Source: Candidatus Berkelbacteria bacterium
GTDB lineage: Bacteria; Patescibacteriota; UBA1384; JACPKC01
Length of the DNA stretch: 64,000 bases
NCBI GenBank assembly: GCA_016187225.1
Contig: JACPKC010000002.1
Location: forward strand, 3,387-67,386
Direction: 5' to 3'
The translations under genes were made by a program, and so were the position numbers. Shown in pieces: positions 4,671 through 34,842 of the stretch (its first letter is position 1; each line of letters begins with the position of its first letter). The notes beneath the pieces were generated by a model. It had not been told where the DNA came from and did no database searches. It was given only the letters and a program-made list of their open reading frames with translations.

Positions 4671-5117
4671 CTAGGGTTCCAACTTAATCGCGTCCGGCAG
4701 TATGAACGAGGCGGCGAGAAATTTGAGAAACATATAGGAGCCAAAGACCACGCCGATACCGAGTAAAGTATATAAGATGCCCATTTTAGCCGCTTGTGCT
4801 TGAGTGGCGTTTCCACTCGAGGTAACAAGCTTGTAGCCATTTAAGATCAGAAAAATCAGGGCGATTGCCAGAACAAACCTAATCATTGCGTTCGCGATCG
4901 CTTTCAAAAATATCATAATATTTTCAAAGGTTTGTTCTTTTGGGTCGCTAACAATGCTCCAGTCGATACCAAAAAGATTTTGATCAGCGGCGTGCGTAAG
5001 TTGAGGAATGAGAAAAACGGCAAAAAGAAAAATTAAGCCTATCAAGAAGGTTTTTGACTGAACACGTTTTACCAGTTGGTAGGTTTTGGTTCGCAATGAC
5101 ATTTTTTCCTCACTCAA
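4671..5117 (-). CDS. VirB2/TrbC-pilin-like membrane protein (paralog 4, divergent)
   Basis: 148 aa. Signal peptide ends ...LTHA. Two C-terminal helices around TSSGNATQAQAAKM. Confidence 0.5.
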   Translation of the reverse strand: MSEEKMSLRTKTYQLVKRVQSKTFLIGLIFLFAVFLIPQLTHAADQNLFGIDWSIVSDPKEQTFENIMIFLKAIANAMIRFVLAIALIFLILNGYKLVTSSGNATQAQAAKMGILYTLLGIGVVFGSYMFLKFLAASFILPDAIKLEP

Positions 5118-10843: not shown

Positions 10844-13800
10844 ATGCGTTGGCTCGACCGAGCGATCATATTTTTTTCTGCACTCTTGAGCGCAGTCTTG
10901 ATGGTAATTCCGCAAAGTGTTGCGGCGGTTGATTTTAATTCTTCAAATATTATTTCCAACAGTGAGTTTATCGATACAAATTCAATGACCGCGCCGGAAA
11001 TTCAGCGTTTCTTGGAAGACCGGGGCGGTTTTTTAAAAGATTTTACAGAAAACGGCCGCTCGGCCGCGCAAATCATTTACGATGCCTCTCACGGTTACGG
11101 TGATGCTTCGGGCGCGATCAACGGCATCGCGCTGACAACGAGTACCGGCACGGTGAGTCCGAAAGTGATCCTGGTCACCCTTCAAAAAGAGCAAAGTCTG
11201 CTGACAATGACATCCCAAAACGACAGCGCCTTGCGGGCGGCGATGGGCTATGCTTGTCCGGATTCGGGCGGGTGTAACTCTAACTATGCTGGTTTTACCA
11301 AGCAAGTTGAGAACGGCGCTTGGCAGTTGCGCTATAACTATGAGCGTTCACAGGCTACAGGCTTTGGCGATTATCAAGTGGGTCAATCATTTTGTTTTGA
11401 CGATTTTAACGGCACTAACTGCGGCACATATGAAAATCGCGCCACCGCCGCGCTCTACCGCTACACGCCGCATGTTTATAATGGGAACTACAATTTCCAT
11501 AATCTCTACTACAACACCTACAACTTCACTGGGCCGGAGTTCGCGGCGACCCTAATTTCTTGGTCAAGTTCGGCTGGGCTTTATCAGTATCCTTCGGTAA
11601 GCAGTGGTCAGGATGCCACCTTGCAGGTCACACTGCGAAATATGGGGCGCACGACTTGGCAAAGAGGGGCGGTGAATTTAGGCACGGAACAGAATCGCGA
11701 CCGCATCACCGGTTTCAATCGTGGAACGGGCTGGCGATCAGGAAATCGAGTTTCGTTGGTTGAAGTCTCGGTTGCGCCGGGTGAAAATGGCACCTTTAAT
11801 TTTGTGGTTTCGCCGCCTTATTCTCTTCAAAGCGGCACTTATCGAGAACACTTCCGCCTCGTGGCCGATGGCATCAGCTGGTTTGGGCCAGAGTTATTCT
11901 GGGATATTTCAGTGACGGCGAGTTATCAGGCATCAGTCAGTTCATGGTCAACTTCAAGCGGTTCGCATACTTATCCAAGCGTAACTCGGGGCGGAAATGG
12001 CACAAATATAATTTTGAGAGTTCAAAATACTGGCGCGGCAATTTGGCAGAGAGGGACGGTGAATTTAGGCAGTGATCAGCCGCGCGATCGCGGCACGGGC
12101 TTTTTGCGCGAGTCGGGCACTGGAGTGGCTTCGGGCTGGGTCTCACAGAATCGAATCCAGATGCAAGAGAGTTCAGTCCCGCCTGGTGAAACAGCGACTT
12201 TCTCCTTCTGGCTTCAAGCGCCATCGAATATGCGCCCGGGGACTTACCGAGAACACTATCGTCTGGTGGCGGATGGATTAGATTGGTTCGGACCCGAGTA
12301 CTACTGGGATTTTGATTTTCCTTTGGAGTCAAAACAGATTGCTCTAATTGACGACTCTCCAGCTCGGAAAGTTCAAGTGGGCGAGGAAACCACTCACCAC
12401 TCACCACTCATCACTCACCTGCTTACTTTCAGCGAATCGCCAGATGCGGTAAAACTCGCTTGCGCTCTTAATCTTTCTGAAGATGCGGTCGAAATTAATC
12501 AGGCAACTCAAACCGCTATTATCTCGGGTGAGATTCCTGATTTGAGCAAGCTGGCCGCCGTGTTGCCAACCCTCGAGAGTGTGGAAGCCGATGAGCCAAT
12601 TCGAATCTTCTCAACCCCGAATGACCCCAGGTATAGTAGTCAGGCAACGACTTTCTCGCAAATGAACATGCAAGCCGGCTGGGATTACGTGCAGGGCAAA
12701 ACGAGCGCTGTCATTGCCGTCATTGATACCGGCGTAGACGGAACGCACGAAGATTTAACCGGCAAGGTATTGGCAGGCAGAAATATCTCGGCCAATACCG
12801 CGATCGCGGCTAATACTGACTCGGATGACAATGGGCATGGCACGAATATCGCCGGCATCGCGGCGGCGGGCGGCGATAATTCCATTGGAATGACAGGGGT
12901 TGATTGGCAGGCGCGAATTTTGCCAATCAAAGCTTTCAATAGTGATGGATTGGCAGAGACTTCAGATATCGTTTCGGCGATTGAGTATGCTATTAATCAG
13001 AATGCGACCGTGATTACGATGAGTTTTGGTCGCTCAACACCTTCAGATGCGTTAGAAGCGGCGGTTAATAGCGCCGCCAGTCGCGGCATTCTTCTTGTCG
13101 CGGCGGCTGGCAATACGGGCGAGAGTTCAGTTTACTATCCCGCGGCTTATGAAAATGTGATTGCGGCCGGCGCCGTGCAGGCCGATAATGCTCGTGCCAG
13201 TTTTTCTAATTACGGTAGCGCTCTTGATTTAATGGCGCCGGGTGTTTCAGTAATCGCAACTGCCGACGGCGGGGGGTATGAAGCCGTGAGCGGCACGTCA
13301 TTTGCTGTGCCTTTCATTGCTGGCATCTCAACCTTGGTGAAGGATTTTCATAGTAGCGCCAGTGCGAGTGATGTAACGAGTATTTTAAACTCGACGGCCA
13401 CCAAGGTTAGCGGTATGAACGGCAATCTGCGAACCGATGAATATGGCAACGGTGTTGTGAATTTAGCCGATGCGCTTGTTAGCGCTGGAGACTATCAGGC
13501 TTCGACAATTTCTTGGTCAACCAGTAACGGTTTATTTACCTATCCAACTCTCTCTTTGGGTGGCAGTGGCGCGAATGTCATTCTCACAGTGCGAAATACC
13601 GGTACCTCGCGCTGGTTTCGCGATCTGGTGCATCTAGGCGCCGATCAGCCGCGCGATCGCGGCACGGGCTTTTTGCGCGAGTCGGGCACTGGAGTGGCTT
13701 CGGGCTGGGTCTCACAGAATCGAATCCAGATGCAAGAGAGTTCAGTCCCGCCTGGTGAAACAGCGACTTTCTGGATTAGATTGGTTCGGACCCGAGTACT

Positions 13801-14237
13801 ACTGGGATTTTCGGGTTTTATCAGAACTCGATGGGTATGGAGCAAGCACCTTAAACTGGTCAACCTCGGATGGACTTTTTACCTATCCAAGTGTTATTCG
13901 AGGTGGAGCTGGCACGAATATCGTGTTACGGGTCCGGAATACCGGCACAACGACCTGGATACAAGAGACTGTTCATCTAGGCGCCGATCAGCCGCGCGAT
14001 CGCGGCACGGGCTTTTTGCGCGAGTCGGGCACTGGAGTGGCTTCGGGCTGGGTCTCACAGAATCGAATCCAGATGCAAGAGAGTTCAGTCGCTCCGGGTG
14101 AAACCGCCACCTTTTCATTTTGGTTACAAGCGCCGTCCGGAATGAGTCCGGGCACCTATCATGAACACTTCAAAGTCGTAGCCGATGGTCTGGGTTGGTT
14201 TGGTTCAGAAGCGTACTGGGATGTTATCGTGAGATAA
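10844..14237 (+). CDS. large secreted S8 subtilisin-family peptidase with internal I9-like propeptide and five Ig-like/beta-sandwich repeats; reading frame interrupted near 13773
   Basis: Signal peptide MRWLDRAIIFFSALLSAVLMVIPQSVAA. Catalytic triad contexts AVIDTGVDGTHEDL, DNGHGTNIAGIAAAG and GTSFAVPFIAGI. Repeat unit ...NLGxDQPRDRGTGFLRESGTGVASGWVSQNRIQMQESSVPPGETATFSFWLQAPS..GTYREH(Y/F)RLVADG..WFGPE occurs at least five times. ORF 10844..14101 and ORF 13755..14237 are joined by an apparent 73-bp deletion relative to the repeat copy at 12204. Confidence 0.75.
12074..12203. repeat. 130-bp perfect intragenic repeat, copy 1
   Basis: Identical to 13643..13772, and to 13986..14090 over 105 bp. 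Confidence 0.85.
13643..13772. repeat. 130-bp perfect intragenic repeat, copy 2 (ends at the deletion/frameshift junction)
   Basis: String identity with copy 1. Downstream sequence rejoins the repeat unit 73 nt later than in copy 1. Confidence 0.85.
13986..14090. repeat. 105-bp perfect intragenic repeat, copy 3
   Basis: String identity with copies 1 and 2. Confidence 0.85.
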
Positions 14238-14296
14238 GGCGCAAATCACTAGATCAACACTACGGTCTAATTCACTTCATTGGCCTTGAACTAGAT

Positions 14297-15181
14297 ATGT
14301 CTCTACAGAATCAGCACAAACAAGCTCAACAGGCGCTTTATGACGCTCATCTCCTCGATGATCTTGCCGCGGGCGCCGGAACCTTTGGATTTCGCAAGCC
14401 CAAGTTATTGCGCGATCTCGCTTTTGCGCGTTGGCTTGCCCGCCTTGAACTTAAAAGCGGTGAGCAAGTGCTGGATGTTGGTTGTAATGCCGGCGCTCGA
14501 CTTGAAGCTCTTCGGCGCGAATACGGGATCGAGGGCACGGGCATTGATCTTTCGCCGAAGACAATTGCGCTTGGCCAAAAACATTTTCCAGCGTTGACCC
14601 TTCAGGTGGGAGACGCCGAACTTTTGCCTTATCAGGAAAATTCTTTTGACACAGTCATTAGTTTCGAAACCTTTGAGCATCTGCCCAACCCTGGCAAGGC
14701 GTTGGCAGAAATCGGTCGTGTTGTTAGGCCTGGTGGTTGGGTGTTGATTTACGCTATTTCACGACGCAATGCTGGCACTTGGCATTGGCTTCAATCTAAG
14801 TTGAGCGGCGGTCGCTTGGGCACGGGCGCCTTGCGCGATCATCTTCCCGAACTTCTTGTTCCACCAGAATGCTTTCCAGCTTGGTCTCAAAAAGCGGGAC
14901 TCAAGATCCAACAGAGAGGTCTTTTGCATCAATTTTTTACCCTTTTGCATGATGAACCTTGGAGCGCCTTCCTCGCAACACTTGCCCCCAAACGCTCTCG
15001 GCCACGACTTGATACAATAAAAATGGCAGGCAATCTACCTCGCGCGCCGGGCAAGTTTTTTATGCTCTACCGCGTCTGGCTTCATGGCATGGAGATTGTC
15101 ATGAGTCTTTTGGATTTACCCTGGCAAATGGCACGAGTAAGCGATGGTATTTTTGTTTTATTGAAAAAACAAGAATTGTGA
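14297..15181 (+). CDS. class I SAM-dependent methyltransferase
   Basis: Motif I VLDVGCNAG. Post-I and II regions IDLSP...DAELLPYQENSFDTVISFETFEHLPNPGKALAEIGRVVRPGGWVLI. Confidence 0.8.
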   Translation: MSLQNQHKQAQQALYDAHLLDDLAAGAGTFGFRKPKLLRDLAFARWLARLELKSGEQVLDVGCNAGARLEALRREYGIEGTGIDLSPKTIALGQKHFPALTLQVGDAELLPYQENSFDTVISFETFEHLPNPGKALAEIGRVVRPGGWVLIYAISRRNAGTWHWLQSKLSGGRLGTGALRDHLPELLVPPECFPAWSQKAGLKIQQRGLLHQFFTLLHDEPWSAFLATLAPKRSRPRLDTIKMAGNLPRAPGKFFMLYRVWLHGMEIVMSLLDLPWQMARVSDGIFVLLKKQEL

Positions 15182-16722
15182 TTAGGAGGGGCAAGATCTT
15201 GAAGCGTCAAAGTATTATCTCGGGATTCATCTTCGGGCTACTTTTAGGCGTACTTGGACTTCGTCTTTACCTCTTGTTTTGGGGCTATTTTCAATATGAA
15301 TTTATTGTGCCGCCGGGGGGAGATCCAGCTGTTCATTTACAATTTATCAATGCGATTCAGCGTGGCACGTTTCAAATTGGCGCCTATCCGCCGGCTTTTC
15401 ATTTTATTGTTGCCTGGCTCGCACAAGCGCTGGCCTTGCCCACAGTTACAATTTTAATTCTCGTCGGTCCCTTTTTAGTTGTATTGCCGGCGCTCGCGGT
15501 GTTTTTGCTCGCTCGAGCTTGGTTTGATCGCGTTACTGCGCTCTTGGCGGCCGCTCTAATTGGCCTGACTGGCGCGAGTCCGATTCTCGCTTATATGGAT
15601 GGGAATTATCCAAATTTAATCGCTGGCGGCTTCTTCCTGATCCTTGGCATTACGGCGCTTGTTCTGGGGCTACGGAAACAGCCAGTTTTTTACAGCACAC
15701 TTGCGAGCCTGTCTTTTTTAGCGGTGGCTTTATTCCATCACCTTACTTACGGTCTTCTGCTTGCGATTCTAGTGGTTTACTTCCTCGCTCTGTGGATTTT
15801 GAAATGGTTTAAAATTGGCTCGGTGCCATATTTGCGAACTGTGAGCTGGATAGTGTTGCCCTCGCTCTTGCTCACCGTCGCAGTCGCTCTTCTCTTGGCT
15901 GGGCCCGAAGTGATCTTGCCGGCGCTCCGCGATCTTTTAGGCGGTCAGCCGCCATCTATTTTTGATTCAGCGCTTCGAACGCCAATTCGTCTAGGGCAAT
16001 ACAATGAAATTGTTGGTCCGGTTGTGGTGGTGAGCGGTATTTTGGGTATCATCTTTTTGATTCAGCGCCGTGATTTGCCTTGGGAACGTCGACTCTTCTT
16101 GCTCCTTTGGATTGGGATTGTGTTTGCTCTTTCACGAACTCAATTTTCTGGTCTGCCAGCGCGATTTGCGCGAGAACTCGGCATCCCCTTGGCGCTTTCG
16201 GGTGGACTTTTGGGCACATCGCTCATGAAACTTTCAACCGATCGTTCTCATCAATTGGCAAGTGGAGCGATTCTCGCTCTCTTCCTGGTTTCGCAAACAG
16301 TGATGCTCACAACTGGCCCAGCCCAACTCCCCGAATCCTTTAGTCGACTCATCTGGTTTGACAAATCTGACCAAGAGAAGCTTGCTTATCTTGAAGACTT
16401 GCCAGTGGGAAGCCGAATTTTGGCGACACCCAGCTCGCCCTACTATGAAGCTCTGTTACCGGAGTATAAATTTTCCGCACTCGCGGCAATGGATCTCACG
16501 AATGAGCGTAAGACCGGGCAATTAATTCAATCCCGCGCCGACTATTTGTTTGTAGATACCTTGCCGGCGACTAATCCTGATCCAATTGCGTATCCATATT
16601 TTGCCAACTACGATCGGGCGCGAGTCGCCCTTGAAAATTATAGTGGAGCGAGAATTATCAAGACCTTCGCGGATGGTTCAGTTGTGAAACGCGTGATCGC
16701 CACCTTGCCAGCCGTGCAGTAA
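15178..16722 (+). CDS. polytopic membrane protein, putative GT-C-type glycosyltransferase or polymerase
   Basis: More than 10 hydrophobic segments followed by a soluble C-terminal domain of about 150 aa. Start overlaps the upstream stop (ATGA). Confidence 0.4.
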   Translation: MIRRGKILKRQSIISGFIFGLLLGVLGLRLYLLFWGYFQYEFIVPPGGDPAVHLQFINAIQRGTFQIGAYPPAFHFIVAWLAQALALPTVTILILVGPFLVVLPALAVFLLARAWFDRVTALLAAALIGLTGASPILAYMDGNYPNLIAGGFFLILGITALVLGLRKQPVFYSTLASLSFLAVALFHHLTYGLLLAILVVYFLALWILKWFKIGSVPYLRTVSWIVLPSLLLTVAVALLLAGPEVILPALRDLLGGQPPSIFDSALRTPIRLGQYNEIVGPVVVVSGILGIIFLIQRRDLPWERRLFLLLWIGIVFALSRTQFSGLPARFARELGIPLALSGGLLGTSLMKLSTDRSHQLASGAILALFLVSQTVMLTTGPAQLPESFSRLIWFDKSDQEKLAYLEDLPVGSRILATPSSPYYEALLPEYKFSALAAMDLTNERKTGQLIQSRADYLFVDTLPATNPDPIAYPYFANYDRARVALENYSGARIIKTFADGSVVKRVIATLPAVQ

Positions 16723-16814
16723 GAAGTAGATGGTGAGTGACGAGAGTTTTTTATTCGAGCTTGTCGAGAATCACCCTTTACTATCTATTACTCACTCTTC
16801 ATTATTTATTAAGA

Positions 16815-17951
16815 ATGAAGATCGCCATTATTTTGGGCACGCGCCCAGAAATTATTAAACTCGCCCCAATTCTTCGTCGCATCCAGGCGTCCGAGAATGA
16901 GCTTATGCTCATCCATACTAATCAGCACTACTCGGCAAATATGGACGGGGTATTCTTTAAGGAATTAGCTTTGCCAGCGCCAGACTCTAATCTTGGGGTT
17001 GGTTCAGGTACGCATGGCGCTCAAACTGGTTTAATGCTTGCCAGGCTCGAGAAGGCGTTGAACATGAATCGACCGGACGCAGTTCTAGTTCAGGGAGATA
17101 CTAATACAGTTTTAGCAGGCGCCTTGGCGGCGGTGAAGCTTGGTATTCAAGTCGGTCACGTGGAAGCGGGGCTTCGAAGTTACGACCGAACGATGCCGGA
17201 AGAGATCAATCGCGTTCTGACCGACCATGCGGCCGATATTTTATTTGCGCCCACTCAAAATGCGGCCCAGCTTTTACATGCCGAAGGTATTCCTAGCGAA
17301 CGAATCGAGGTTACTGGTAATACGATCGTGGATGCAATAAACGATCATCGTGAGTTAGTCAATTCACGTTCGTATATTCTATCCACGCTAAAGCTAGAGC
17401 CTCGAGGTTATTTGCTTTTAACCCTGCATCGGCCAGCGAATGTTGACCGACGAGAAACGCTCGCTGAAATTATTATAGGAATCACGAACGTGGCACGAAT
17501 AACTCAACTGCCGGTAGTCTTTCCGGCGCATCCTCGAACAGTTAAACAGCTTGAGCAATTCAAGCTCACGCTTCCGGTTTCATTTCGTCAAATTAAGCCA
17601 ATCGGCTACCTAGATTTTCTAGGCTTAGAAGCAAATGCCGAGCTTATTCTCACGGACTCCGGCGGAATTCAAGAAGAAGCCTGTGTCCTGCGAGTGCCTT
17701 GCGTGACCATCCGAGAAAACACCGAACGTCCCGAAACTCTGGCAGTAGGCGCTAACGAATTGGCAGGTCTAACCTCAATCGGCATTCAAGCGGCGAGTGC
17801 CAAAATGCTTGCGCAAGCTCGAACTTGGCAAAATCCTTTTGGCGATGGTCGCGCGAGCGATCGAATTCTTCACAAATTATCCACAAGGTTTTCCACACTG
17901 CCTGCAACGGGCTTTGCTAGTGTTAAGGGTCATGGCGACCACAACTTCTAA
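16815..17951 (+). CDS. UDP-N-acetylglucosamine 2-epimerase (WecB/NeuC family)
   Basis: MKIAIILGTRPEIIKLAPI...HTNQHYS...LVQGDTNTVLAGALAAVKLGIQVGHVEAGLRSYDRTMPEEINR is canonical Epimerase_2. Confidence 0.85.
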   Translation: MKIAIILGTRPEIIKLAPILRRIQASENELMLIHTNQHYSANMDGVFFKELALPAPDSNLGVGSGTHGAQTGLMLARLEKALNMNRPDAVLVQGDTNTVLAGALAAVKLGIQVGHVEAGLRSYDRTMPEEINRVLTDHAADILFAPTQNAAQLLHAEGIPSERIEVTGNTIVDAINDHRELVNSRSYILSTLKLEPRGYLLLTLHRPANVDRRETLAEIIIGITNVARITQLPVVFPAHPRTVKQLEQFKLTLPVSFRQIKPIGYLDFLGLEANAELILTDSGGIQEEACVLRVPCVTIRENTERPETLAVGANELAGLTSIGIQAASAKMLAQARTWQNPFGDGRASDRILHKLSTRFSTLPATGFASVKGHGDHNF

Positions 17952-19578
17952 AGCCGAAGTTTTAAGGCGAGCTTTGGCGCGGCAAGCGCCGGTGTTGGCG
18001 CTTGAAGCGCACGACGCTCCATCAGCTAAAATCGTTGAAGAAGCCGGTTTCGATGCCGTTTGGGCTTCAGGTTTGACGATTTCTATTACTCACGGCGTCC
18101 CCGATCTCGGTCTTTTAGATCGATCTGAAATGCTCACGACCGTGAAATGCATAAATGACGCCACAACCCTGCCGGTGATTGTTGATGTCGATGATGGTTA
18201 TGGCGGCATTCGAAATGTGATTCAACTTGTTAAGGAATGCGAGGCGATCGGTGTTGCGGCAATTATTATTGAAGAAAAAGGGCGAACAACCAAGGCCAAT
18301 TCCCTTGATCAAAATGCGCATCACTCTTTGGAAGAGATTGACGTTTTCTCGGCAAAACTTAGAGCCGCTAAGCAATATCAACGCTCGCCTCACTTTCTCG
18401 TGGTGGCCCGGATTGAGGCCTTGATCGCGGGTTTGTCCGTTGAAGAAGCGCTAAAGCGCGCCAATACCTATACAGATGCGGGTGCAGATGCGATCGTGAT
18501 TCACTGGAACAAAAAAGATCCCAGTTTAGTTTACAATTTTATCGATCAGTTTAAGGATCGGGTGCCGGTAATTGTCATCCCAACGAGTTATAGCCAGATT
18601 CCTGCCTCGGAACTTGCCAGTCGCGGCGTTAAGCTAGTGATCTATGCCAACCATCTAAGACGGGCCTCAATCACAACGATGCGCGCGATTGCTGCCCGGA
18701 TTCGAAATGATGAGCGCACCTCTGAAGTGGAGGCTGAAATCGCTTCGGTGAAAGATCTTTGGAATATGGTTGGCACACACGAGGTCATGGCCTACGAAGA
18801 ACGCTTACTGCGAGAAAGCAAGGCGCCGATCAATGCTCTTATTCTCGCGGCCGGAGAGACTAAGGAGCTTGGGCGAATCACCGACTTGCCGGTCGCGCTC
18901 ATGCAGATCAATAAGAAGAGTTTCCTTGAGTGGCAGGCACATGCATATCGGGCGGTTGGCGTTGAGGCGGTTGGCGTCGTGACCGGTTGGCGAGCCGAGA
19001 AAATCACTCTGCCCGGGTTTACCTATATTAAGAATCCTGACTATGCCAAAACAGGAATCTATCATACCCTTCAAAAGGCAAAAAAATTTTTGACCGCCGA
19101 GACCCTAGTGTCTTATGGCGATATTTATTTTTCGGATGATCCAGTGCGTCGCATTCTCGTTGAACTTGAGAATGGGCAAGCTGATATCGTCATCGCCGTC
19201 GACCCGAATATAAAATATGGTCTTGTCTCTAATGACAAAGAGCTGGTTATGACCGAGGAAGAAACCTCGTCATTGGGAAGTCGGATGGCGCATCTATCGG
19301 AAAAACCGCGTGTCCTCAAGGTGAGCAAGAAGCTAGTTGGCAACGCGATCGCGGGCGAGTTTATCGGTTTGGCTGGTTTTTCCAAATCAGCAATAACCGC
19401 CTTATTACTTTTGCCTGAATCTCAACCTGAAACAGACTGGCGCCAGGCGGATTTATGTGACGCGCTTAATACCTTGATTGCTCAAGGAATTCAAATTCGG
19501 GCAATTCCAGCGCCGTTCTGGTATGAAATTGATAAAACCGCTGACGTGCTTAATCTTTTAAGCACCAGTATGGTTTAG
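17932..19578 (+). CDS. pepM: phosphoenolpyruvate mutase fused to a C-terminal MobA-like nucleotidyltransferase (phosphonate cytidylyltransferase-type)
   Basis: The N-terminal 290 aa resemble characterised PEP mutases: EAGFDAVWASGL, DVDDGYGG, VARIEALIAGLSVEEALKRANTYTDAGADAIVIH, PTSY, LVIYANH. The C-terminal INALILAAGETKELGRITDLPVALMQI and GDIYFSD are NTP-transferase motifs. Confidence 0.8.
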   Translation: MATTTSKAEVLRRALARQAPVLALEAHDAPSAKIVEEAGFDAVWASGLTISITHGVPDLGLLDRSEMLTTVKCINDATTLPVIVDVDDGYGGIRNVIQLVKECEAIGVAAIIIEEKGRTTKANSLDQNAHHSLEEIDVFSAKLRAAKQYQRSPHFLVVARIEALIAGLSVEEALKRANTYTDAGADAIVIHWNKKDPSLVYNFIDQFKDRVPVIVIPTSYSQIPASELASRGVKLVIYANHLRRASITTMRAIAARIRNDERTSEVEAEIASVKDLWNMVGTHEVMAYEERLLRESKAPINALILAAGETKELGRITDLPVALMQINKKSFLEWQAHAYRAVGVEAVGVVTGWRAEKITLPGFTYIKNPDYAKTGIYHTLQKAKKFLTAETLVSYGDIYFSDDPVRRILVELENGQADIVIAVDPNIKYGLVSNDKELVMTEEETSSLGSRMAHLSEKPRVLKVSKKLVGNAIAGEFIGLAGFSKSAITALLLLPESQPETDWRQADLCDALNTLIAQGIQIRAIPAPFWYEIDKTADVLNLLSTSMV

Positions 19579-19594: not shown

Positions 19595-20758
19595 GTGGCA
19601 GTCGAACCAGTTAAATTTTGGCAAGCGCTTGAAAAAGAGAATCTCGGTCCAATTTTTCAAGTTCCATGCTCGATATTCAAAAATTTTCTGAACTTTTGTT
19701 ATGACACCGACAAGGAAGTCTACAATCCGGTTCATGAAGGCATTGCCCTAGTTCAAGCTTCGGGCGCTTATCTTGCTACCGGTAAATTGCCGATCGTGAT
19801 GCTTCAAAATTCCGGTTTTGGCAATCTTTTGAATCCCCTCACCTCATTGAATCAGGTTTATGACATCCCTGCTTTGCTGATGATGAGTTGGCGCGGAGCG
19901 GATGGTCGAGGCACTGATGCGCCGGAACATGATGAAATGGGAACCATGTTCTTAAAAATTCTTAAGGCGGCGAATGTTGCCTCTGAAATACTTGATGAGA
20001 GACATTTCGGCGAGCAAATTTATAAGTCGAGCCAACTCGCTCAAAGCCAACGTCGCCCGACCGCGTTAATTCTTAAAAAAGATTTTTTTGCGCCCTACCA
20101 AGCACGCCAATCACACATCTCTCCAGCGCAAGAATTCACACGGCATCACGTGATCTCGGTGATAAAAAATTGGTTTGGCGAGCGAGCGATTTACCTTTCT
20201 TCGACTGGCTTCCCAAGCCGAGATTCGTTTAACGTTCGCGATACGCCCGATTTTTACATCATGGGTTCAATGGGCTATACGGGCGCACTCGGCTTACATA
20301 TTGCAAAATCAAACGACCGTCCAGTTGTGCTCTTCGAAGGCGATGGCAGTGTTTTAATGCATATCGGCGCACTCGCTTCAATTGCGGCGCTTAAGCCAAA
20401 AAATCTGATCCATTTTGTTTTAGATAACGAAGCTTATGATTCAACCGGTTTCCAGCCATCGCTAAGCAAAGGCATCGATTTGTGTAAAATTGCGGAAGGT
20501 TTCGGCTACACGTATACATTGAACGTTCGTGAAGAAAATGATTTAAGGACTCTTCTCGCAACCGTGGAATCAATTAAAGGACCGATCTTGATCCGCGTCA
20601 AGGTGGGGCAGGTTCATACAAAGACTGGCCAACGCGTTTCGGATAAGTATTCTCCAGTTCAGATTACAGATCGTTTTATGGAGAATTTGCGATCTGGCTA
20701 TCTTGGCATTCAAGAGTCAGGCAATCAAGCGCGTGACGTGGTTGAGGTTAATGTCTAA
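19595..20758 (+). CDS. ppd: phosphonopyruvate decarboxylase (thiamin-diphosphate enzyme; sulfopyruvate decarboxylase is the closest alternative)
   Basis: 387 aa. ThDP motif GDGSVLMHIGALASIAALKPKNLIHFVLDNEAY (GDG-x26-NN). Positioned directly after pepM. Confidence 0.7.
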   Translation: MAVEPVKFWQALEKENLGPIFQVPCSIFKNFLNFCYDTDKEVYNPVHEGIALVQASGAYLATGKLPIVMLQNSGFGNLLNPLTSLNQVYDIPALLMMSWRGADGRGTDAPEHDEMGTMFLKILKAANVASEILDERHFGEQIYKSSQLAQSQRRPTALILKKDFFAPYQARQSHISPAQEFTRHHVISVIKNWFGERAIYLSSTGFPSRDSFNVRDTPDFYIMGSMGYTGALGLHIAKSNDRPVVLFEGDGSVLMHIGALASIAALKPKNLIHFVLDNEAYDSTGFQPSLSKGIDLCKIAEGFGYTYTLNVREENDLRTLLATVESIKGPILIRVKVGQVHTKTGQRVSDKYSPVQITDRFMENLRSGYLGIQESGNQARDVVEVNV

Positions 20759-21852
20759 TGCCCTGGTCGTACCATCTGCCTACACAGATCACGTTCGGTG
20801 AAGGCGTATTTCGCGATATTGATCGGTGGTGGTTAGCTAAACTGGGGCGGCGTGTCGGCTTGATCACGAGTCCATCTCAACAAGCGCGGGCGGTTGAACT
20901 TAAGGTTTGTGCGCGTTGGGATAAGATTACTTCCAACCCATCGGTTGCGACGCTTCAATCTTTGATTAAATGGGTTAAGTCAGAATCCCTCACCGGCCTA
21001 GTTGCTCTTGGCGGCGGCAGTGTGATCGACAGCGCCAAGGTTGCTTCAGTCCTGGCTTGCCAAGACATCTCACTTGTTGAAGCGCTCACCCGAAAAACTC
21101 AATTAGTCGCTCGACACTTGCCACTTATTGCTTGCCCGACCACTGCCGGCACAGGCGCAGAGGTTACGAAATGGGCAACGGTTTGGGGCGACGATCTTCG
21201 CAAGTATTCATTTGAGCATGAACTTGCTTATCCACTTCAGGCGGTCATCGACCCAGAGCTGACTTATTCATTGCCCCGTCAAATTACGGCCTCAACCGGC
21301 TTGGATGCATTTGCGCAAGCGATCGAAGCCTATTGGTCGCGTAATACTCAACCGCTCTCGCAAACCTTGGCGCTTCGTGCGATCGAGCTGATTTACGCCA
21401 CTTTGCCAAAAGCAGTCGATCAGCCAAAAGATGGCACAGCGCGTCACGACATGGCGCTTGGCTCGCTCTTGGCCGGACTCGCCTTTACCGGCACGCGCAC
21501 AACGGCCTGCCACGCCATTTCTTATCCAATGACCGCTCATTTCGGTGTGCCGCATGGCTTTGCCGTTGCTCTCACTCTTCCAAACATGCTCCGTTTCAAC
21601 GCCGAATCCTTCGTCAATTTTTCTACGTTCGTGAAGGCACTAGATGCAGATTCGATCGAAGCGGCCGCGAAACGCATTGAGCAGTTGATGCAAGTAGTAG
21701 GCGCGCCAACTACTTTAGCCGCCGCCAAGGTGCCTAAAACAGGCTTGCAAACTATTCTTGATGAGGGCTTTCATCCCGACCGCGTTATTCACAATCCTCG
21801 CGAACTTGACAGACAGTCGTTATCCGAGATGCTAACTAAAATTGCAAACTAG
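20758..21852 (+). CDS. group III iron-containing alcohol dehydrogenase (candidate phosphonoacetaldehyde reductase giving 2-hydroxyethylphosphonate)
   Basis: GGGSVIDSAKVAS and the Fe-ADH His cluster HAISYPMTAHFGVPHG. Start overlaps the ppd stop. Confidence 0.65.
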   Translation: MPWSYHLPTQITFGEGVFRDIDRWWLAKLGRRVGLITSPSQQARAVELKVCARWDKITSNPSVATLQSLIKWVKSESLTGLVALGGGSVIDSAKVASVLACQDISLVEALTRKTQLVARHLPLIACPTTAGTGAEVTKWATVWGDDLRKYSFEHELAYPLQAVIDPELTYSLPRQITASTGLDAFAQAIEAYWSRNTQPLSQTLALRAIELIYATLPKAVDQPKDGTARHDMALGSLLAGLAFTGTRTTACHAISYPMTAHFGVPHGFAVALTLPNMLRFNAESFVNFSTFVKALDADSIEAAAKRIEQLMQVVGAPTTLAAAKVPKTGLQTILDEGFHPDRVIHNPRELDRQSLSEMLTKIAN

Positions 21853-21860
21853 GAGGTTGG

Positions 21861-22598
21861 ATGCAGGCTTTAATCGTTGCGGCGGGCCGTTCGTCTAGAC
21901 TCTATCCGTTGACTCTCAAGACTCCGAAAACCCTGCTGTCGGTTGGCGAAGCGAGTTTAATTGAACGGTCGGTTCAAGCGTTGACTGCGGTTGGCGTTGA
22001 TCGGTTAGTGGTGATAACGGGCTTTGAAGCCGAGCAGATTGAATCAGCCTTGGGCGATCGGGCGAGCTACGTTCGAAACGAAAACTTTGCCACAACCAAT
22101 AATTTGGCAAGCTTACTGATTGGATCGCAAGCGCTTGATCTGTCAGAACCCTGGCTCTACCTTCATGCCGATTTAATTTATCATCCGCGCTTACTTGAAA
22201 ATACATTAAAAGCGCCGGGTGAAGTGGTTTTCTTAGTTGACCAACAGTCAATCGGCGAAGAAGAAATGAAAGTTCGGATCAAGGATGGGCGAATTATTGA
22301 AGCCAACAAGGCGATTCCGCTTAAGGAAGCCGCTGGTGAATGGACGGGAATTATCAAGTTTAATCCAGAGGGTGCGGCATGGTATCTGCCAGCGGTCGAG
22401 AAAGCAGTCGCGACTGATCCAACCAAATATGACTGCGTGGTCGTTCGTGATCTTGCCGCCGCCGGATATACAATTAGCGTTGCCTCGACTGAAGGCTTAC
22501 CGTGGCGCGAGGTTGATTTTCCAGAAGATCTTGCCGCCGCCCGGGAGATCGCCAAGGAGATTCCATGGCCAGTTCCATCCCTTCAGTTCGCGAATTGA
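21861..22598 (+). CDS. MobA/LicC-like nucleotidyltransferase (second cytidylyltransferase candidate)
   Basis: MQALIVAAGRSSRLYPLTLKTPKTLL...VDRLVVITG. Confidence 0.6.
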   Translation: MQALIVAAGRSSRLYPLTLKTPKTLLSVGEASLIERSVQALTAVGVDRLVVITGFEAEQIESALGDRASYVRNENFATTNNLASLLIGSQALDLSEPWLYLHADLIYHPRLLENTLKAPGEVVFLVDQQSIGEEEMKVRIKDGRIIEANKAIPLKEAAGEWTGIIKFNPEGAAWYLPAVEKAVATDPTKYDCVVVRDLAAAGYTISVASTEGLPWREVDFPEDLAAAREIAKEIPWPVPSLQFAN

Positions 22599-23329
22599 TT
22601 CCAATTATTCAAAAACGAAACTACGAGACCGCGACTACTTTTCAACTTGTTCATTTTCGTATTTCTCCTTACCTAACTCGCATCCTTTTGATGTTGAACA
22701 TCTCTGCTAATGCGACGACTCTAATCGCGCTCTTAATTGGTCTTATGTCGGTGTTTGCGCTTGTGCGACTGGTCAATAGCCCGCATCTTGTTTTAATTAG
22801 CGCACTGCTTTTTCAACTTCATTACCTGTTTGATTGCTCCGATGGTGAAATTGCTCGATTTCGCAAAACCCAAAGCCCGGCTGGCAAGTACGCCGACCTA
22901 TTTTTGCACCTTTTTGTTTACCCGATTTTTTTCCTTTCGATGGGTTGGGGGGCAACGAATGCGACTGGGAATCCATATTTTTTGCTTCTAGGCGGGATCA
23001 GCGCGGTTGGAGCGCTCTGGTACGACCACCTCTGGTTCGATTCTGGGCCGGATCCGGCATCCTTGACTCCAGTCAAAATGCCAAGCGTGACAATCGCAAA
23101 AAGAAAGTCAGCCCTAACTTTATTCATTGAACGGTCGTCGATTGTATGGAGCTTTCCCCTAATTGCTAATGTGTTTGGTCTTGTTGGAGTTTTGGTAAGT
23201 GCGTTAGGTAGCCTTGAACCGCTCTTTTGGTTTCTTTGGTTCTACGGCATTTCGTATCCGCTCTTCAGTGTTTTTACTGCTTGGCGCGTTCATCGCAATC
23301 TCGTAAAAACTTATGCTAAGCGCTCATAG
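22565..23329 (+). CDS. membrane CDP-alcohol phosphotransferase family protein
   Basis: DCSDGEIARFRKTQSPAGKYADLFLH matches DG-x2-AR-x8-G-x3-D-x3-(D/H). Five or six TM segments. Confidence 0.55.
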   Translation: MASSIPSVRELIPIIQKRNYETATTFQLVHFRISPYLTRILLMLNISANATTLIALLIGLMSVFALVRLVNSPHLVLISALLFQLHYLFDCSDGEIARFRKTQSPAGKYADLFLHLFVYPIFFLSMGWGATNATGNPYFLLLGGISAVGALWYDHLWFDSGPDPASLTPVKMPSVTIAKRKSALTLFIERSSIVWSFPLIANVFGLVGVLVSALGSLEPLFWFLWFYGISYPLFSVFTAWRVHRNLVKTYAKRS

Positions 23330-23389: not shown

Positions 23390-25078
23390 ATGGCTCGCGA
23401 GCGGAAACAGAAAAAACCCATTCTTGTAATTCTTGAGGACCCGACTTGTCTCGATCGCATCCACAATGCAATTCATCCTCATGAACAAGACCAGATACTC
23501 TATTTGCCTCTGAATGATTCAAGTTATCGAGCGCTTCAGTCGGCCAATTTGCCAAGTGTCGATCTTACCTCGCTTCAATGGAAGTCGTTTATTGGCATGG
23601 ATGATGAGGCTAGAAAACTTGCTCGTATTTCTATAAACAAAAATAAGAAGGTTTTGCACGGTCAAGAGATTACCCAAGTGCTTGAGTGGCCGCTAAGTTA
23701 TCTCTTTGCGTATCTATTAAAAAGAATCTGGATAATCGATTGGGCAATTCGAAGTTACAAGCCAGGCCAGATTATTTTTTGTATTCCAAAAAACAAGTTC
23801 CAACTTTCAGATGATCTATCATTTTCAGAATCAAGTTTAATCGGAAGTCGTTTAGCGTTGCTTTTGGCGCGCCGGAGTTCTCTGCCGTACAAAATGATCC
23901 GGGTGCGACAAAAAATGGCCTTTGATTTCCTCCGACCTCTCCGTTTAATATACCGTTGGTGGCGCTCGCAACGCTTCCCAGAAATCCCGTTGAAGCGGTT
24001 TGATGTCTTGGTCGCTCCAGCCGTAAAAGAGGCATCCTTTTCAGCGTTCAAGGGCAAAAATATCAACAGACTGACAAGTTATGGCTTACCTCTCCCTCTT
24101 TTTTCGCATGAACAGTTTCAATTTCCGCCGCTTCGTTACAGAGGCATATCGCTTAATTCGATTTTGAATTCCACAGCTAAGCAGGTTGGTCGAACGTTGC
24201 GGAGTTATCGCGCGTTTTTCGAGCGTGTTTCGGCCGCTCTCGCTTTTGCTCATGCCGAATTTGTAATTGCGAGCGAAGACACCAGCGCTTTTGGAAAATC
24301 TCTTGTTCTTGCCGCTAAATCCCAAGGGATTCGTTCAGTGGTTAGCCAGCATGGGGTCACAGGTCACCCGATTGGTTTTATTCCACTCACGGCCGATAAG
24401 TTTATGGCGTGGGGGCAAATTTCGCGAGATTGGCTAATAAAACACGGAGTGCCAGCTAAACGAGTGAGTGTTACAGGGCATCCAGCGTTTCAGGCTCATC
24501 AGGTTGATAGAACTCGTCGAGCTATACATCGAACGAACGTGAATAAAATGTTGAAGTTAGCGAGCAGGGCAAAATTAGTTGTGCTCACCACGCAAGTGAT
24601 TGAGGAACGATACTGTTTCCCTAATTATCATGTAAATTGGTGGGAAAATACGCCGTTTATTCAGGACGTAATCAACGCTGTGCTGGATATTGATTTAGCG
24701 GTTTTAGTGATCAAACCTCATCCCTCGGATGAAGGAATGGAAAAAATTATTGAAAGCTTAATCACTCGCGAACGAGTCAAGATTGTGCGGACGATACCGA
24801 CGCCAGAATTACTCGAAGCCGCTGATGTGGTGGTTACAGCTTGGTCAACGACTGGTCTTGAAGCTCTCGCCGTTGGGACGCCGGTCGTGTGGCATAACCC
24901 AGCGCGTCGGCCTGACTATCTCGGCTATCGTCCGTACATGAAGCATATTGAGGCGAAGAATCCACTCGAACTCACTGCGCTTATCCGCCAGGCAATCAAA
25001 TACCCGCTTCATTACCTCAAATCAGCTAAGACTGTAGAATATCTTAAGGATTACTTCAGCGTTCCACATCTCCATTAA
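23390..25078 (+). CDS. GT-B-fold transferase, TagF/CDP-glycerol glycerophosphotransferase-like candidate
   Basis: The C-terminal half has VLVIKPHPSDE...VVTAWSTTGLEALAVGTPVV, reminiscent of Glyphos_transf/capsule phosphotransferases. The N-terminal half is unassigned. Confidence 0.35.
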   Translation: MARERKQKKPILVILEDPTCLDRIHNAIHPHEQDQILYLPLNDSSYRALQSANLPSVDLTSLQWKSFIGMDDEARKLARISINKNKKVLHGQEITQVLEWPLSYLFAYLLKRIWIIDWAIRSYKPGQIIFCIPKNKFQLSDDLSFSESSLIGSRLALLLARRSSLPYKMIRVRQKMAFDFLRPLRLIYRWWRSQRFPEIPLKRFDVLVAPAVKEASFSAFKGKNINRLTSYGLPLPLFSHEQFQFPPLRYRGISLNSILNSTAKQVGRTLRSYRAFFERVSAALAFAHAEFVIASEDTSAFGKSLVLAAKSQGIRSVVSQHGVTGHPIGFIPLTADKFMAWGQISRDWLIKHGVPAKRVSVTGHPAFQAHQVDRTRRAIHRTNVNKMLKLASRAKLVVLTTQVIEERYCFPNYHVNWWENTPFIQDVINAVLDIDLAVLVIKPHPSDEGMEKIIESLITRERVKIVRTIPTPELLEAADVVVTAWSTTGLEALAVGTPVVWHNPARRPDYLGYRPYMKHIEAKNPLELTALIRQAIKYPLHYLKSAKTVEYLKDYFSVPHLH

Positions 25079-25375: not shown

Positions 25376-25404
25376 GAGGCGTTTTTCACGACGCCTCTTT
25401 TCTT
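25376..25404 (+). terminator. rho-independent terminator
   Basis: GAGGCGTTTTTCACGACGCCTC hairpin followed by TTTTCTT. Confidence 0.5.
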
Positions 25405-27090: not shown

Positions 27091-27706
27091 TACTTTAGTA
27101 CTGGCGCACGCTTCGGTTGAATCACGCCCGGTTTAGGCGTAAACTCCAGACGTTTCGTTGGGAACCACCGGCAAGTCGGTGAATTTAATAGATTGGAGGA
27201 AAATGCGATATGAACGTTATCGCATGTTCCAAAGACCCTGGAGGGTTCAATAATCTCCTCCCCGTGTTGACCCGCACTCTTCCCGGAGACCGGTTTTCTC
27301 CAGTTCCAGTTGGAGAACGGCAATCTGGCGGAGCATCCGCTCGTGGCGAGCGGATGTGTTATGAAAGCAACGAATCTCGCCGAGTTGATCAATCAAGTGG
27401 TCATGGCGCTTGATGGGGATCTCGGTTCGAGAATTCTTGCTTCCCAGGAGGGCTACTACCGACTTGATGGCATGAACGCGGAGCGGTTTTGCCATCTGCT
27501 CCGGGATTTGGGGCACTGCAGCTTACAGCGTAGCGACCCCTTTCTCGTGAGGTCAGGTCTGTTCGATTGCCAAACTTACAGTTCGGTAGGTTTATAACCT
27601 ACCACATCGCGGGCCTTCGGGCCCGCTTCTACGTTTAGCCCACCTTGCATCAGTCATGACATGTGCTAGCATCAGGAAAATATCCAAGCAACAAAGGAGG
27701 GATTGC

Positions 27707-28291
27707 GTGTCATCTCCAAAGGTCAAACGTCCAAAAATCGTTGCTGTTATTCCGGCGCGGATTGGTTCGAAACGACTTCCTAAGAAGAATATCCAAGTGA
27801 TTGGTGGTCTTCCGTTGGTTGCGTGGGCCATCAAAACCGCCCAGGCAACCAAGCTTATCGACGACGTCTACGTTTCAACAGAGAGTGATGAGGTGGCCAC
27901 AATCGCTCGCCAATACGGCGCCAAGGTACTTGATCGGCCCGAGGAGCTGGCCGGTGATACGATCCGTATGCAGGACGTTGCACGCCAGGTTATGACCGAG
28001 CTCGCGGATATTGATGTCCTTGTCTTAGTTGGCGCGAATACGCCTGGCTTGCCACCTGAAACGCTCGACGCCGCAATCCAAAAGCTCCTCGACCACAGCC
28101 GCTGGGAAATTCGAAGTGTTGACAAAGACGGCCTTGAGCATTTCATGTTTTGGATTATGACTCGGCAAGCCTGTTTTTGGGATGGTCTCTCCGTCTATTT
28201 TGGTGTTCAAGAAACAGGTGTCGAGGAGATTCATACACCTGAAGACCTGGAACGTGTCCGCGCGATCCTTGAACAGAAAATTATTGCATGA
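27707..28291 (+). CDS. neuA: acylneuraminate (nonulosonic acid) cytidylyltransferase, short form
   Basis: GTG start 6 nt after AAAGGAGGG. KIVAVIPARIGSKRLPKKNIQVIGGLPLVAWAIK is the CTP_transf_3 signature. Confidence 0.7.
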   Translation: MSSPKVKRPKIVAVIPARIGSKRLPKKNIQVIGGLPLVAWAIKTAQATKLIDDVYVSTESDEVATIARQYGAKVLDRPEELAGDTIRMQDVARQVMTELADIDVLVLVGANTPGLPPETLDAAIQKLLDHSRWEIRSVDKDGLEHFMFWIMTRQACFWDGLSVYFGVQETGVEEIHTPEDLERVRAILEQKIIA

Positions 28292-30052: not shown

Positions 30053-30068
30053 CGCTAGGCGAGAATCT

Positions 30069-34793: not shown

Positions 34794-34842
34794 TGAAGGG
34801 TAAAGAGAGAGTTGTTAGTCACGGAAACAAAAGGAGTTAATA

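Follow-up and report, generated by a model that had tools for sequence, protein, structure and literature searches.

A probable, divergent PEP mutase-nucleotidyltransferase fusion with a variant gating-loop signature, predicted to head a cell-surface phosphonate operon in Berkelbacteria

Does a gene whose gating-loop signature departs from the EDKx5NS motif of PEP mutases (PepM) still encode a PEP mutase, and if so, what would it be doing in a Berkelbacteria (CPR) genome? The gene in question lies in the window that we analysed, a 64,000-nucleotide stretch of the Candidatus Berkelbacteria contig JACPKC010000002.1, and its parts are as follows.

17932 (ATG)..19578, + strand: pepM-NTase fusion gene, 548 aa (PF13714 197 bits, PF12804 44 bits, TIGR02320 286.6 bits)
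17932-18819, + strand: PEP mutase domain, approximately residues 1-296
18829-19575, + strand: MobA-like nucleotidyltransferase domain, approximately residues 300-548
18265..18306, + strand: variant gating-loop signature I-I-E114-E115-K116-G117-R-T-T-K121-A-N123-S124-L (translation and HMMER alignment)

The product is identical to NCBI MBI2589436.1, with Pfam PEP_mutase (PF13714) covering residues 13-257 at 197 bits (profile positions 2-239 of 240) and NTP_transf_3 (PF12804) covering residues 302-426 at 44 bits, such that the fused nucleotidyltransferase reported by the first-pass annotation is real. Within this fusion of PEP_mutase and NTP_transf_3, the forward strand from 18262 to 18306 encodes the 15-residue string IIIEEKGRTTKANSL, whose first Ile is coded 3 nt upstream of 18265, at 18262-18264, and whose remaining residues are read from the codons ATT ATT GAA GAA AAA GGG CGA ACA ACC AAG GCC AAT TCC CTT. 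These residues run from the end of barrel strand beta4 into the active-site gating loop, of which they form the N-terminal half. HMMER alignment with solved PepMs revealed no gap through residue 116 followed by a single one-residue insertion, which places EEKgRTTKANS against EDK-RFPKVNS or EDK-LFPKTNS. The signature is thus E-E-K-x6-N-S, differing from EDK-x5-NS by Glu for Asp115 and by one added residue following Lys116, and the exact E-D-K-x5-N-S regular expression finds no match. The first-pass annotation had described this substitution and this insertion, both accurately by the codons and the alignment, but had missed a third change, in which the Phe-Pro of the canonical xFPKxNS loop (present in 102/102 canonical fusion homologs) is replaced by Thr-Thr. 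Asp115, Phe and Pro are each found in 102/102 of those homologs, and the insertion in 0/102.

We evaluated whether the variant could be a sequencing or assembly artefact arising at the short homopolymer runs within GAAGAAAAAGGG; an error at this site was one of the refuting conditions that the first-pass annotation had named. The A5 and G3 runs are all that speaks for an artefact, and the difference is in-frame and spans several residues (Asp to Glu, one residue gained, and Leu/Phe/Pro to Arg/Thr/Thr). Independent Logan assemblies of two different runs, SRR12113424 and SRR12113420, match the motif DNA and its surroundings (15.5 kb and 12 kb) at 100% identity. Because the NCBI MAG and these assemblies, three from two runs, agree over 12-15.5 kb, we reject a sequence error at the level of assemblies and consider the chance of an artefact negligible.

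To place the mutase domain, we first compared it with Mytilus PepM, using the residue roles compiled in a review (PMC7916636). All 13 residues with an assigned role (W44, S46, G47, L48, D58, D85, D87, E114, K120, N122, S123, R159 and H190 in Mytilus numbering) are kept. The four that make up the Mg2+ site (Asp58, Asp85, Asp87 and Glu114) fall at the same positions without gaps and form invariant columns in the homolog alignment, and Lys120, Asn122, Ser123, Arg159 and His190 correspond to K121, N123, S124, R160 and H191, shifted by one residue through the insertion. The structure prediction that had been proposed as a check likewise matched PepM: an AF2 model of the fusion protein (pLDDT 90.9) had as its best Foldseek matches the PepM structures 1pym and 5unc (TM 0.95-0.96, rmsd 1.4-2.0 A). 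Confidence in this model is lowest in the gating loop, with loop pLDDT values of 82 and 63 versus 87 and 66 in a canonical PepM-NTase control for which the same alignment served as input.

Among family models, the PepM model TIGR02320 came out as top family (286.6 bits versus 204.3 for phosphonopyruvate hydrolase (PPH) and 142 for methylisocitrate lyase, prpB). The score lies below the TIGR02320 trusted cutoff of 319.55, as do those of motif-bearing PepM-type relatives (P0122 at 297.6, P0257 at 290.2 and P0213 at 294.9). With the loop masked, the domain scored 333 bits against the PepM-class HMM, 308 against an EDN..C-S HMM and 268 against a PPH-like HMM, and the resulting margins of +25 and +65 are within the range of genuine EDKx5NS members; in the calibration, all 58 EDN..C-S members favoured their own HMM by at least 53 bits and PPH-like members theirs by at least 133. 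A neighbour-joining tree built without the loop columns recovered EDK..NS sequences as the sister group in 172/200 bootstraps, and the clusters of that group include some PepM-Ppd fusions. This placement may reflect long-branch attraction, and because canonical PepMs are at least as similar to the protein as the sister group is (37-41% identity), we relied on the HMM calibration rather than on the tree.

The surrounding genes bear on the same question and are listed here.

14195-15181, + strand: methyltransferase, upstream gene of the pepM operon
15178-16722, + strand: 514-aa protein without a family match, upstream gene of the pepM operon
16737-17951, + strand: UDP-GlcNAc 2-epimerase WecB (TIGR00236 wecB, 393 bits), overlapping the pepM start by 20 nt
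19595..20758, + strand: phosphonopyruvate decarboxylase (Ppd; TIGR03297, profile positions 7-358 of 360)
20758..21852, + strand: Fe-dependent alcohol dehydrogenase (Fe-ADH), predicted phosphonoacetaldehyde reductase (TIGR03405 Phn_Fe-ADH best at 265 bits, below its cutoff of 423.7)
21861..22598, + strand: stand-alone PntC-like cytidylyltransferase with canonical AAGxxxRL and TPK signatures
22565..23329, + strand: CDP-alcohol phosphatidyltransferase-family membrane protein (PF01066), overlapping the PntC-like gene by 34 nt
23390..25078, + strand: capsule-synthesis-type glycosyltransferase (PF05159; TIGR04396 surface carbohydrate biosynthesis protein), the operon's final large gene
25376..25397, + strand: terminator-like hairpin with an 8-bp stem and T-rich tail, the strongest in the region

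The Ppd neighbour named in the first-pass annotation is real: it scores 308.5 bits against a cutoff of 312.5, carries TPP_enzyme_N and TPP_enzyme_C and begins 16 nt downstream of pepM. The ppd stop codon and the start of the Fe-ADH gene overlap by a single base, and the PntC-like enzyme has as its best solved relative 6pd1 (Tde1415 PntC; E 2.8e-13, residues 2-226). The CDP-alcohol transferase carries the signature DxxDGxxAR-x8-G-xxx-D, after which His (H115) replaces the last signature Asp. Overall, the operon is intact, with genes that overlap or abut, no strong internal terminator and approximately 11 kb of translationally coupled, uninterrupted ORFs free of frameshifts and stop codons, and the hairpin likely marks its 3' end. 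In a calibration across 80 GTDB loci, a Ppd homolog occurred within 6 kb of 14/18 EDKx5NS genes versus 0/13 PPH-like (EDKx5[TS]S) genes.

Three other class assignments were tried and rejected. The best-scoring single match, P0121, is a member of the EDN..C-S (EDN..KRCS) clade, but the loop-masked PepM HMM is preferred over that of the clade by 25 bits, and membership of this clade conflicts with the retained Lys116 and Asn123. An isocitrate or methylisocitrate lyase type is contradicted by a K-A-N-S-L loop that lacks Cys and any K-[KR]-C-G-H, with prpB at 142 against a cutoff of 354. PPH identity fails on the retained Asn-Ser, a TIGR02321 score of 204 against a cutoff of 374, the 65-bit loop-masked deficit and the adjacent Ppd.

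A remodelled loop could still steer the enzyme to another outcome, such as hydrolysis as in PPH, or to another substrate, such as a different enolpyruvyl or oxo-acid compound, and the first-pass annotation had raised altered chemistry in these general terms. The gating loop does decide reaction outcome across the superfamily, with PepM and PPH differing mainly there (PMC7916636), and the hinge half of the loop here is unlike that of every relative examined. Against this, the protein keeps the Asn-Ser that sets PepM apart from PPH (Thr/Ser-Ser) and the lyases (Cys-Gly), keeps K121 and the length of the loop after Asn-Ser, and sits nearer PepM than PPH-like sequences once the loop is masked. Directly downstream of its gene lie those for Ppd, Fe-ADH and a PntC-like enzyme, a setting contrary to that of the calibration's PPH-like genes. 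No finding of our analysis favours altered chemistry, and we regard it as quite improbable. We think it just as improbable that Glu115, the insertion and the loss of Phe-Pro represent adaptive remodelling towards an activity new to the ICL/PEP-mutase superfamily, with the product still passing to a decarboxylase of the Ppd type.

The reading that we favour instead is that the gene probably encodes a functional but sequence-divergent PEP mutase-NTase fusion heading a cell-surface phosphonate operon, whose catalytic activity we infer. Of the "divergent but functional PepM lineage" suggested by the first-pass annotation, the mutase part stands as the best reading, given the catalytic residues, the fold, the loop-masked class and the Ppd, Fe-ADH and cytidylyltransferase context; the "lineage" part does not (see below). 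From its gene content, the operon predicts surface decoration with 2-hydroxyethylphosphonate (2-HEP), with both product and acceptor being putative; because Fe-ADH is present and an AEP transaminase is absent, the prediction is for 2-HEP and not for AEP.

Under the favoured reading, the mutase domain would convert PEP to phosphonopyruvate, with Mg2+ held directly by D85 and via waters by D58, D87 and E114, and with the phosphoryl group shuttled among R160, H191, K121, N123 and S124 beneath the closed gating loop. Ppd would then convert phosphonopyruvate to phosphonoacetaldehyde, pulling the unfavourable equilibrium forward, and Fe-ADH would reduce the latter to 2-HEP. The PntC-like enzyme, the fused NTase or both would activate this as a CMP-phosphonate, from which the CDP-alcohol transferase and glycosyltransferases would place the phosphonyl group onto a glycan or lipid alcohol. 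With Glu in place of Asp115, a residue gained behind K116 and Phe-Pro missing, remodelling is confined to the hinge half of the gating loop; the ligand-contacting half (K-x-N-S-L and the next ten residues) stays in register.

To evaluate how isolated this protein is, 5.8 billion clusters were searched by word index and 1.84 billion cluster representatives exhaustively with phmmer, its own cluster was looked up, and 185,579 GTDB species genomes were scanned. The 5.8-billion-cluster, 1.84-billion-representative and 185,579-genome searches returned no relative more than approximately 45% identical and no other CPR homolog, and the cluster holding the protein has one member, with the only other copies coming from the same strain. 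The protein is therefore a singleton and not a demonstrated lineage, and a one-member cluster with a nearest relative at approximately 45% leaves no basis on which to show that the variant is under purifying selection. The search that had been suggested for the same motif variant came back empty: Glu at the second motif position occurred in 0/119 other word-search homologs and in 0/149 other representatives from the exhaustive phmmer search. Asp115 is invariant in all 268 other relatives, across the EDK, EDN, EDQ and PPH-like subfamilies, and a 6-residue spacer appeared in only one other homolog (P0224, EDKRFPKLRNS). As Asp115 is thereby more conserved than the motif-defining Lys, its replacement could matter. 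The literature that we searched established no structural role for this residue, and the list of PepM catalytic residues in the review (PMC7916636) does not include it.

Such isolation is also what one might see in a relic, in which the mutase domain, or possibly the operon in its entirety, would be impaired or dead in a reduced CPR genome and the motif change would be neutral decay. The singleton has no conserved relatives, it is altered at a position invariant in 268 relatives, and other conserved sites deviate in the same operon, including H115 in the CDP-alcohol transferase and, in the fused NTase, V321, K328 and T310, which replace the prevailing K (76/102), G (98/102) and G (78/102). These deviations are compatible with relaxed constraint, and all three phosphonate enzymes (PepM, Ppd and Fe-ADH) score below their own equivalog cutoffs. 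Decay, however, sits poorly with coupled ORFs that run unbroken over approximately 11 kb, the full set of assigned catalytic residues, full-length HMM matches and a confident fold prediction. Motif-bearing PepMs also score below the cutoff, and high divergence is usual for CPR proteins. We thus consider a relic unlikely and retain the divergent, functional mutase as the preferred reading.

These results have consequences for genome mining. Censuses of phosphonate producers (marine, soil, actinomycete and RefSeq-wide) have needed an exact EDKx5NS, often together with the TIGR02320 cutoff, and several surveys demanded the perfect motif (PMC6697681, PMC8942020, PMC8931226, PMC12723261). The first-pass suggestion that strict-motif mining would miss this gene holds: the regular expression fails and 286.6 bits is below 319.55, so the published surveys would discard it. 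As both filters fail even though every other mutase hallmark and a complete operon are present, the gene represents a concrete false negative. The same motif filter also drops a large EDN..KRCS clade (E-D-N-x-F-P-K-R-C-S loop), an uncharacterised PepM-like group that also heads Ppd-containing operons; the consequence is small for the singleton alone and larger with this clade added. A literature search of incomplete coverage found nothing relevant on motif-deviant PepMs or on PepM in CPR, and this Berkelbacteria genome is, as far as we found, an unreported case of a CPR bacterium with the potential to make phosphonates. Surface phosphonate decoration in Berkelbacteria could bear on episymbiotic attachment or phosphatase resistance. 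For the enzymology, an active mutase would mean that neither the Asp of the superfamily-wide Glu-Asp pair nor the hinge spacing of the gating loop is strictly required.

Compared with known systems, the protein shares its fold (TM 0.95-0.96) and 36-39% identity with the PepMs of Mytilus edulis (1PYM, 1M1B) and Streptomyces platensis (5UNC), and like PepM (EC 5.4.2.9) it has all assigned Mg2+- and phosphoryl-binding residues, the post-Asn-Ser loop length and the coupling to Ppd. Unlike those two enzymes, it has Glu for Asp115, an added residue after Lys116 and Arg-Thr-Thr for x-Phe-Pro. PPH PalA (2DUA, 2HJP) belongs to the same superfamily and gives a pairwise score similar to that of PepM (E 4e-58), but the PPH motif pairs an EDK start with Thr/Ser-Ser in a catabolic context, whereas the Berkelbacteria protein keeps Asn-Ser and scores 82 bits lower against the PPH model than against the PepM model.

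Fusion of Ppm with a PF12804 (MobA-like/LicC-like) domain is the commonest Ppm architecture, with PntC cytidylyltransferases nearby (Rice et al. 2019, PMC6697681), and the Berkelbacteria gene follows this arrangement, with PepM N-terminal, PF12804 C-terminal and a second, stand-alone PntC-like NTase two genes downstream (21861..22598); its fused NTase differs from those fusions in being unusually divergent (V321, K328, T310). Pathways to 2-HEP include a PhpC-type Fe-ADH, the HEP cytidylyltransferase Fom1 and the HEP-bearing phosphonoglycans of Stackebrandtia (as cited in PMC8942020 and PMC12723261). The Berkelbacteria operon resembles these, judging from genes alone, in its PepM-Ppd-Fe-ADH trio, nucleotidyl activation and polysaccharide gene cluster setting, and it differs in its CPR host, in NTases that are of PF12804 type rather than the PF01467 type of Fom1, and in having a CDP-alcohol transferase as the predicted transfer enzyme.

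Translation of window positions 18265-18306 (+; codons ATT ATT GAA GAA AAA GGG CGA ACA ACC AAG GCC AAT TCC CTT) yields IIEEKGRTTKANSL, in the frame of a 548-aa ORF that runs from the ATG at 17932 to 19578, limits returned by both the NCBI and Logan gene callers; the first Ile of the motif string in the first-pass annotation corresponds to the codon immediately 5' of 18265. The product, deposited at NCBI as MBI2589436.1 under a MAG named 'Candidatus Berkelbacteria bacterium', contains two Pfam domains: PEP_mutase (residues 13-257; 197 bits) and the MobA-like NTP_transf_3, a nucleotidyltransferase (NTase; residues 302-426). HMMER alignments to the solved PEP mutases (PepM) 1M1B and 5UNC were gapless over residues 1-116 and then placed exactly one extra residue in the query (EEKgRTTKANS against EDK-LFPKTNS and EDK-RFPKVNS), so that the signature had been accurately described as an Asp to Glu change with a six-residue spacer. 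That description understates the change in the loop, where Phe-Pro has become Thr-Thr too, because Asp115, Phe and Pro are each present in 102/102 canonical PepM-NTase fusions and are all replaced (Glu, Thr, Thr) in the query. The one-residue insertion occurred in none of the same 102 aligned fusions.

An assembly or sequencing artefact at the motif, the error that the first-pass annotation had named as a refutation, is exceedingly improbable, as two Logan contigs, each assembled independently from its own run (SRR12113424 and SRR12113420), match the window at 100% identity across 15.5 kb and 12 kb, motif included, which excludes it so far as assemblies show. Such identity indicates the same strain and is thus without evolutionary information. 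The EEK-x6-NS variant is unique among the sequences examined, with Glu115 in 0/119 other homologs from a word-indexed search (103 matching EDKx5NS and 16 carrying an EDN..C-S loop) and in 0/149 further representatives recovered when phmmer was run exhaustively against 1.84 billion cluster representatives. The sole other six-residue spacer seen (EDKRFPKLRNS) belongs to P0224, a 511-aa homolog from an ENA metagenome that scores 327.6 bits with the PepM equivalog model TIGR02320, above cutoff, so that a longer spacer does not by itself disqualify a protein. The closest relatives of the query share only ~45% identity in the mutase domain, its protein cluster has one member, and scanning GTDB at one genome per species revealed no closer relative and no CPR homolog, such that the proposed variant 'lineage' is at present a single sequence.

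Evaluating the enzyme itself, alignment revealed that every residue with an assigned role in Mytilus PepM is kept, those 3' of the insertion being shifted by one: the direct Mg2+ ligand Asp85, the residues holding water ligands of Mg2+ (Asp58, Asp87, Glu114) and those acting on the phosphoryl group (Arg159, His190, Asn122, Ser123) (PMC7916636). Lys120 and the W44/S46/G47/L48 segment (Mytilus numbering) are also present, and the loop 3' of Asn-Ser equals that of PepM in length. Asp115 is absent from the ligand and catalytic residues given in the same review (PMC7916636), and its invariance in all subfamilies sampled implies a putative structural role. Among NCBIfam equivalogs, TIGR02320 scored best (286.6 bits), followed by phosphonopyruvate hydrolase (PPH; 204.3) and methylisocitrate lyase (142.2); the best score lies under the trusted cutoff of 319.55, as do those of several canonical-motif relatives. 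An AlphaFold2 model (103-sequence alignment; mean pLDDT 90.9) superposed its mutase domain best on PepM 1PYM and 5UNC (TM 0.95-0.96, rmsd 1.4-2.0 A), next on PPH and next on lyases. Gating-loop pLDDT block means were 82 (residues 111-120) and 63 (121-130), and a canonical PepM-NTase, P0025, dipped alike with the same alignment (87 and 66), so the low confidence belongs to the mobile loop and not to the variant. Altered chemistry, which the first-pass annotation had offered as an alternative, is quite unlikely, as nothing favours it and the Asn-Ser pair, Lys121, loop length and context are all mutase-like. We consider it likely, if well short of certain, that the query is a divergent, functional PepM.

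Because the single best-scoring hit of the query lay in a PepM-family clade with an EDN..KRCS loop, we classified it independently of the loop, using loop-masked HMMs built from 130 EDKx5NS, 58 EDN..C-S and 16 PPH-like (EDKx5[TS]S) sequences. The masked query scored 333 bits with the EDKx5NS (PepM) HMM, 308 with EDN..C-S and 268 with PPH-like. These margins of +25 and +65 fall within the range of EDKx5NS members (median 58 bits and 5th percentile 9 over EDN..C-S; median 93 and 5th percentile 46 over PPH-like) and far outside both other classes, whose members prefer their own HMM over that of PepM by at least 53 bits (EDN..C-S, n=58) and at least 133 bits (PPH-like, n=16); membership of either class was ruled out on this basis. 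A neighbour-joining tree without loop columns grouped the query with seven EDK..NS representatives that are themselves divergent (172/200 bootstraps; TIGR02320 290-378 bits), one of whose clusters includes fusions of PepM to phosphonopyruvate decarboxylase (Ppd). As these seven are no closer to the query in identity (37-41%), the placement is suspect, possibly reflecting long-branch attraction, and we rely on the HMM result instead.

Gene context was calibrated on 80 PepM-family loci from GTDB genomes, counting Ppd homologs that scored 80 bits or more and lay no further than 6 kb away. Such a homolog accompanied 14 of 18 EDKx5NS loci and none of 13 PPH-like loci (L024, L034, L048, L052, L063, L065, L069, L072, L074, L077, L079, L080, L084), which also had no Fe-ADH or AEP-transaminase homolog adjacent, and context thus separates synthesis by mutases from hydrolysis by hydrolases well in this family.

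The EDN..KRCS clade is large, with E-D-N-x-F-P-K-R-C-S replacing E-D-K-x-F-P-K-x-N-S (Lys116 to Asn, Asn122 to Cys), and in many members the mutase-like domain is fused to NTP_transf_3, as in the query. Its Cys aligns with PepM Asn122, which we take to be the position of the lyases' catalytic Cys (ICL/MICL K-K/R-C-G-H motif). The clade accounted for 16/120 word-search matches and 45/80 GTDB loci, counts biased by locus retrieval, and its genes were located as follows.

L003/L004 8001-9659: homolog P0044
L005 8001-9851: homolog P0015
L006 8001-10439: homolog P0023
45 of loci L007-L086: further members

Homologs of Ppd and of AEP transaminase lay within 6 kb at 26 and 22 of the 45 loci, respectively. 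The P0044 and P0015 operons carry the mutase-like gene, then split Ppd, AEP aminotransferase (TIGR03301 343 bits against a cutoff of 360.8 at the P0044 locus) and NTase. The P0023 operon encodes NTase-mutase-NTase, Ppd (TIGR03297 332.6 bits, above cutoff), Fe-ADH and CDP-alcohol transferase, the same gene order as in the window. These proteins may be mutases with Cys for Asn or may have another activity feeding Ppd; a non-exhaustive search of the searchable literature found no description of the clade.

In the window, pepM lies in a tightly packed, co-directional gene unit.

14195-15181 (+): methyltransferase
15178-16722 (+): 514-aa protein, no Pfam or NCBIfam match
16737-17951 (+): WecB epimerase, 20-nt overlap with the pepM start
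17932-19578 (+): PepM-NTase
19595-20758 (+): Ppd (TIGR03297 308.5 bits, cutoff 312.5)
20758-21852 (+): Fe-ADH, best family phosphonate Fe-ADH TIGR03405 (265 bits)
21861-22598 (+): stand-alone NTase, best solved relative the phosphonate cytidylyltransferase PntC Tde1415 (6pd1, E 2.8e-13)
22565-23329 (+): CDP-alcohol transferase
23390-25078 (+): capsule-type glycosyltransferase

The sole strong terminator-like hairpin is at 25376-25397, and the gene annotation of the window holds no AEP transaminase near pepM. The fused NTase domain (18829-19575 (+), residues 300-548) is unusually divergent, with Val321, Lys328 and Thr310 at positions occupied by Lys in 76/102, Gly in 98/102 and Gly in 78/102 homologs, respectively, and LicC was its only, weak, match among solved structures. 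The stand-alone NTase has canonical AAGxxxRL and TPK signatures and may carry the cytidylyltransferase activity.

The most serious rival is that the query is a relic under relaxed constraint, which we judge unlikely while giving it real weight. Its changed position 115 is invariant elsewhere, the fused NTase departs from several well-conserved positions, and the operon's CDP-alcohol transferase reads D90-x2-D93-G94-x2-A97-R98-x8-G107-x3-D111 and then has His115 (nt 22907-22909) at the expected last Asp of the DxxDGxxAR..G..D..D signature, an Asp that the homolog in the P0023 operon (L006 12678-13454) retains. Against decay, the ORFs are intact and overlapping across ~11 kb, and every assigned catalytic residue is retained.

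The remainder of the window is surface-glycan biosynthesis, continuing after the phosphonate operon as a long series of genes (27656-47131) that also holds many methyl- and glycosyltransferases; the locus is unusually large for a small CPR genome.

27656-28291: CMP-sugar synthetase
28934-30052: NeuB-type synthase
33099-34793: flippase
36735-39238: dTDP-rhamnose-type genes
43947-46058: 703-aa GT4+GT2 fusion

Four ORFs in or beside the glycan locus (15178-16722, 31771-33291, 39955-41028 and 47094-49070; 514, 506, 357 and 658 aa) had no Pfam match, and an NCBIfam scan, covering the 514-aa one, had none either. Directly upstream of the operon, 10844-14101 (+) encodes a subtilase (Peptidase_S8) of 1085 aa that also bears Ig-like and NPCBM-associated domains and is probably secreted or displayed on the cell surface. 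The PF18895 'T4SS pilin' domain, of a family common in CPR genomes, occurs in two proteins (2254-3474 (-) and 5110-5979 (-)), which fits the labelling of the source MAG as Berkelbacteria.

A perfect EDKx5NS match was required by Rice et al. 2019, Li & Horsman 2022, Acker et al. 2022 and a 2025 actinomycete survey, some of which demand the TIGR02320 cutoff as well (PMC6697681, PMC8942020, PMC8931226, PMC12723261). The query fails both, bearing out the expectation that a divergent, probably functional PepM would be overlooked by strict-motif mining, and is a useful documented false negative of a filter that also removes the EDN..KRCS proteins. Its PepM-NTase fusion architecture is the commonest one, and its operon is recognisably of the 2-hydroxyethylphosphonate surface-decoration type; what is new is its unique signature and unusual (CPR) host. 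A gene set with Fe-ADH and without AEP transaminase, amid surface-glycan genes, predicts that the product would be a 2-hydroxyethylphosphonate decoration of glycan or lipid, activated as a CMP conjugate. This predicted activation would follow the same CMP-conjugate logic as the Pnt pathways (PMC6697681) and Fom1 (PMC8942020).
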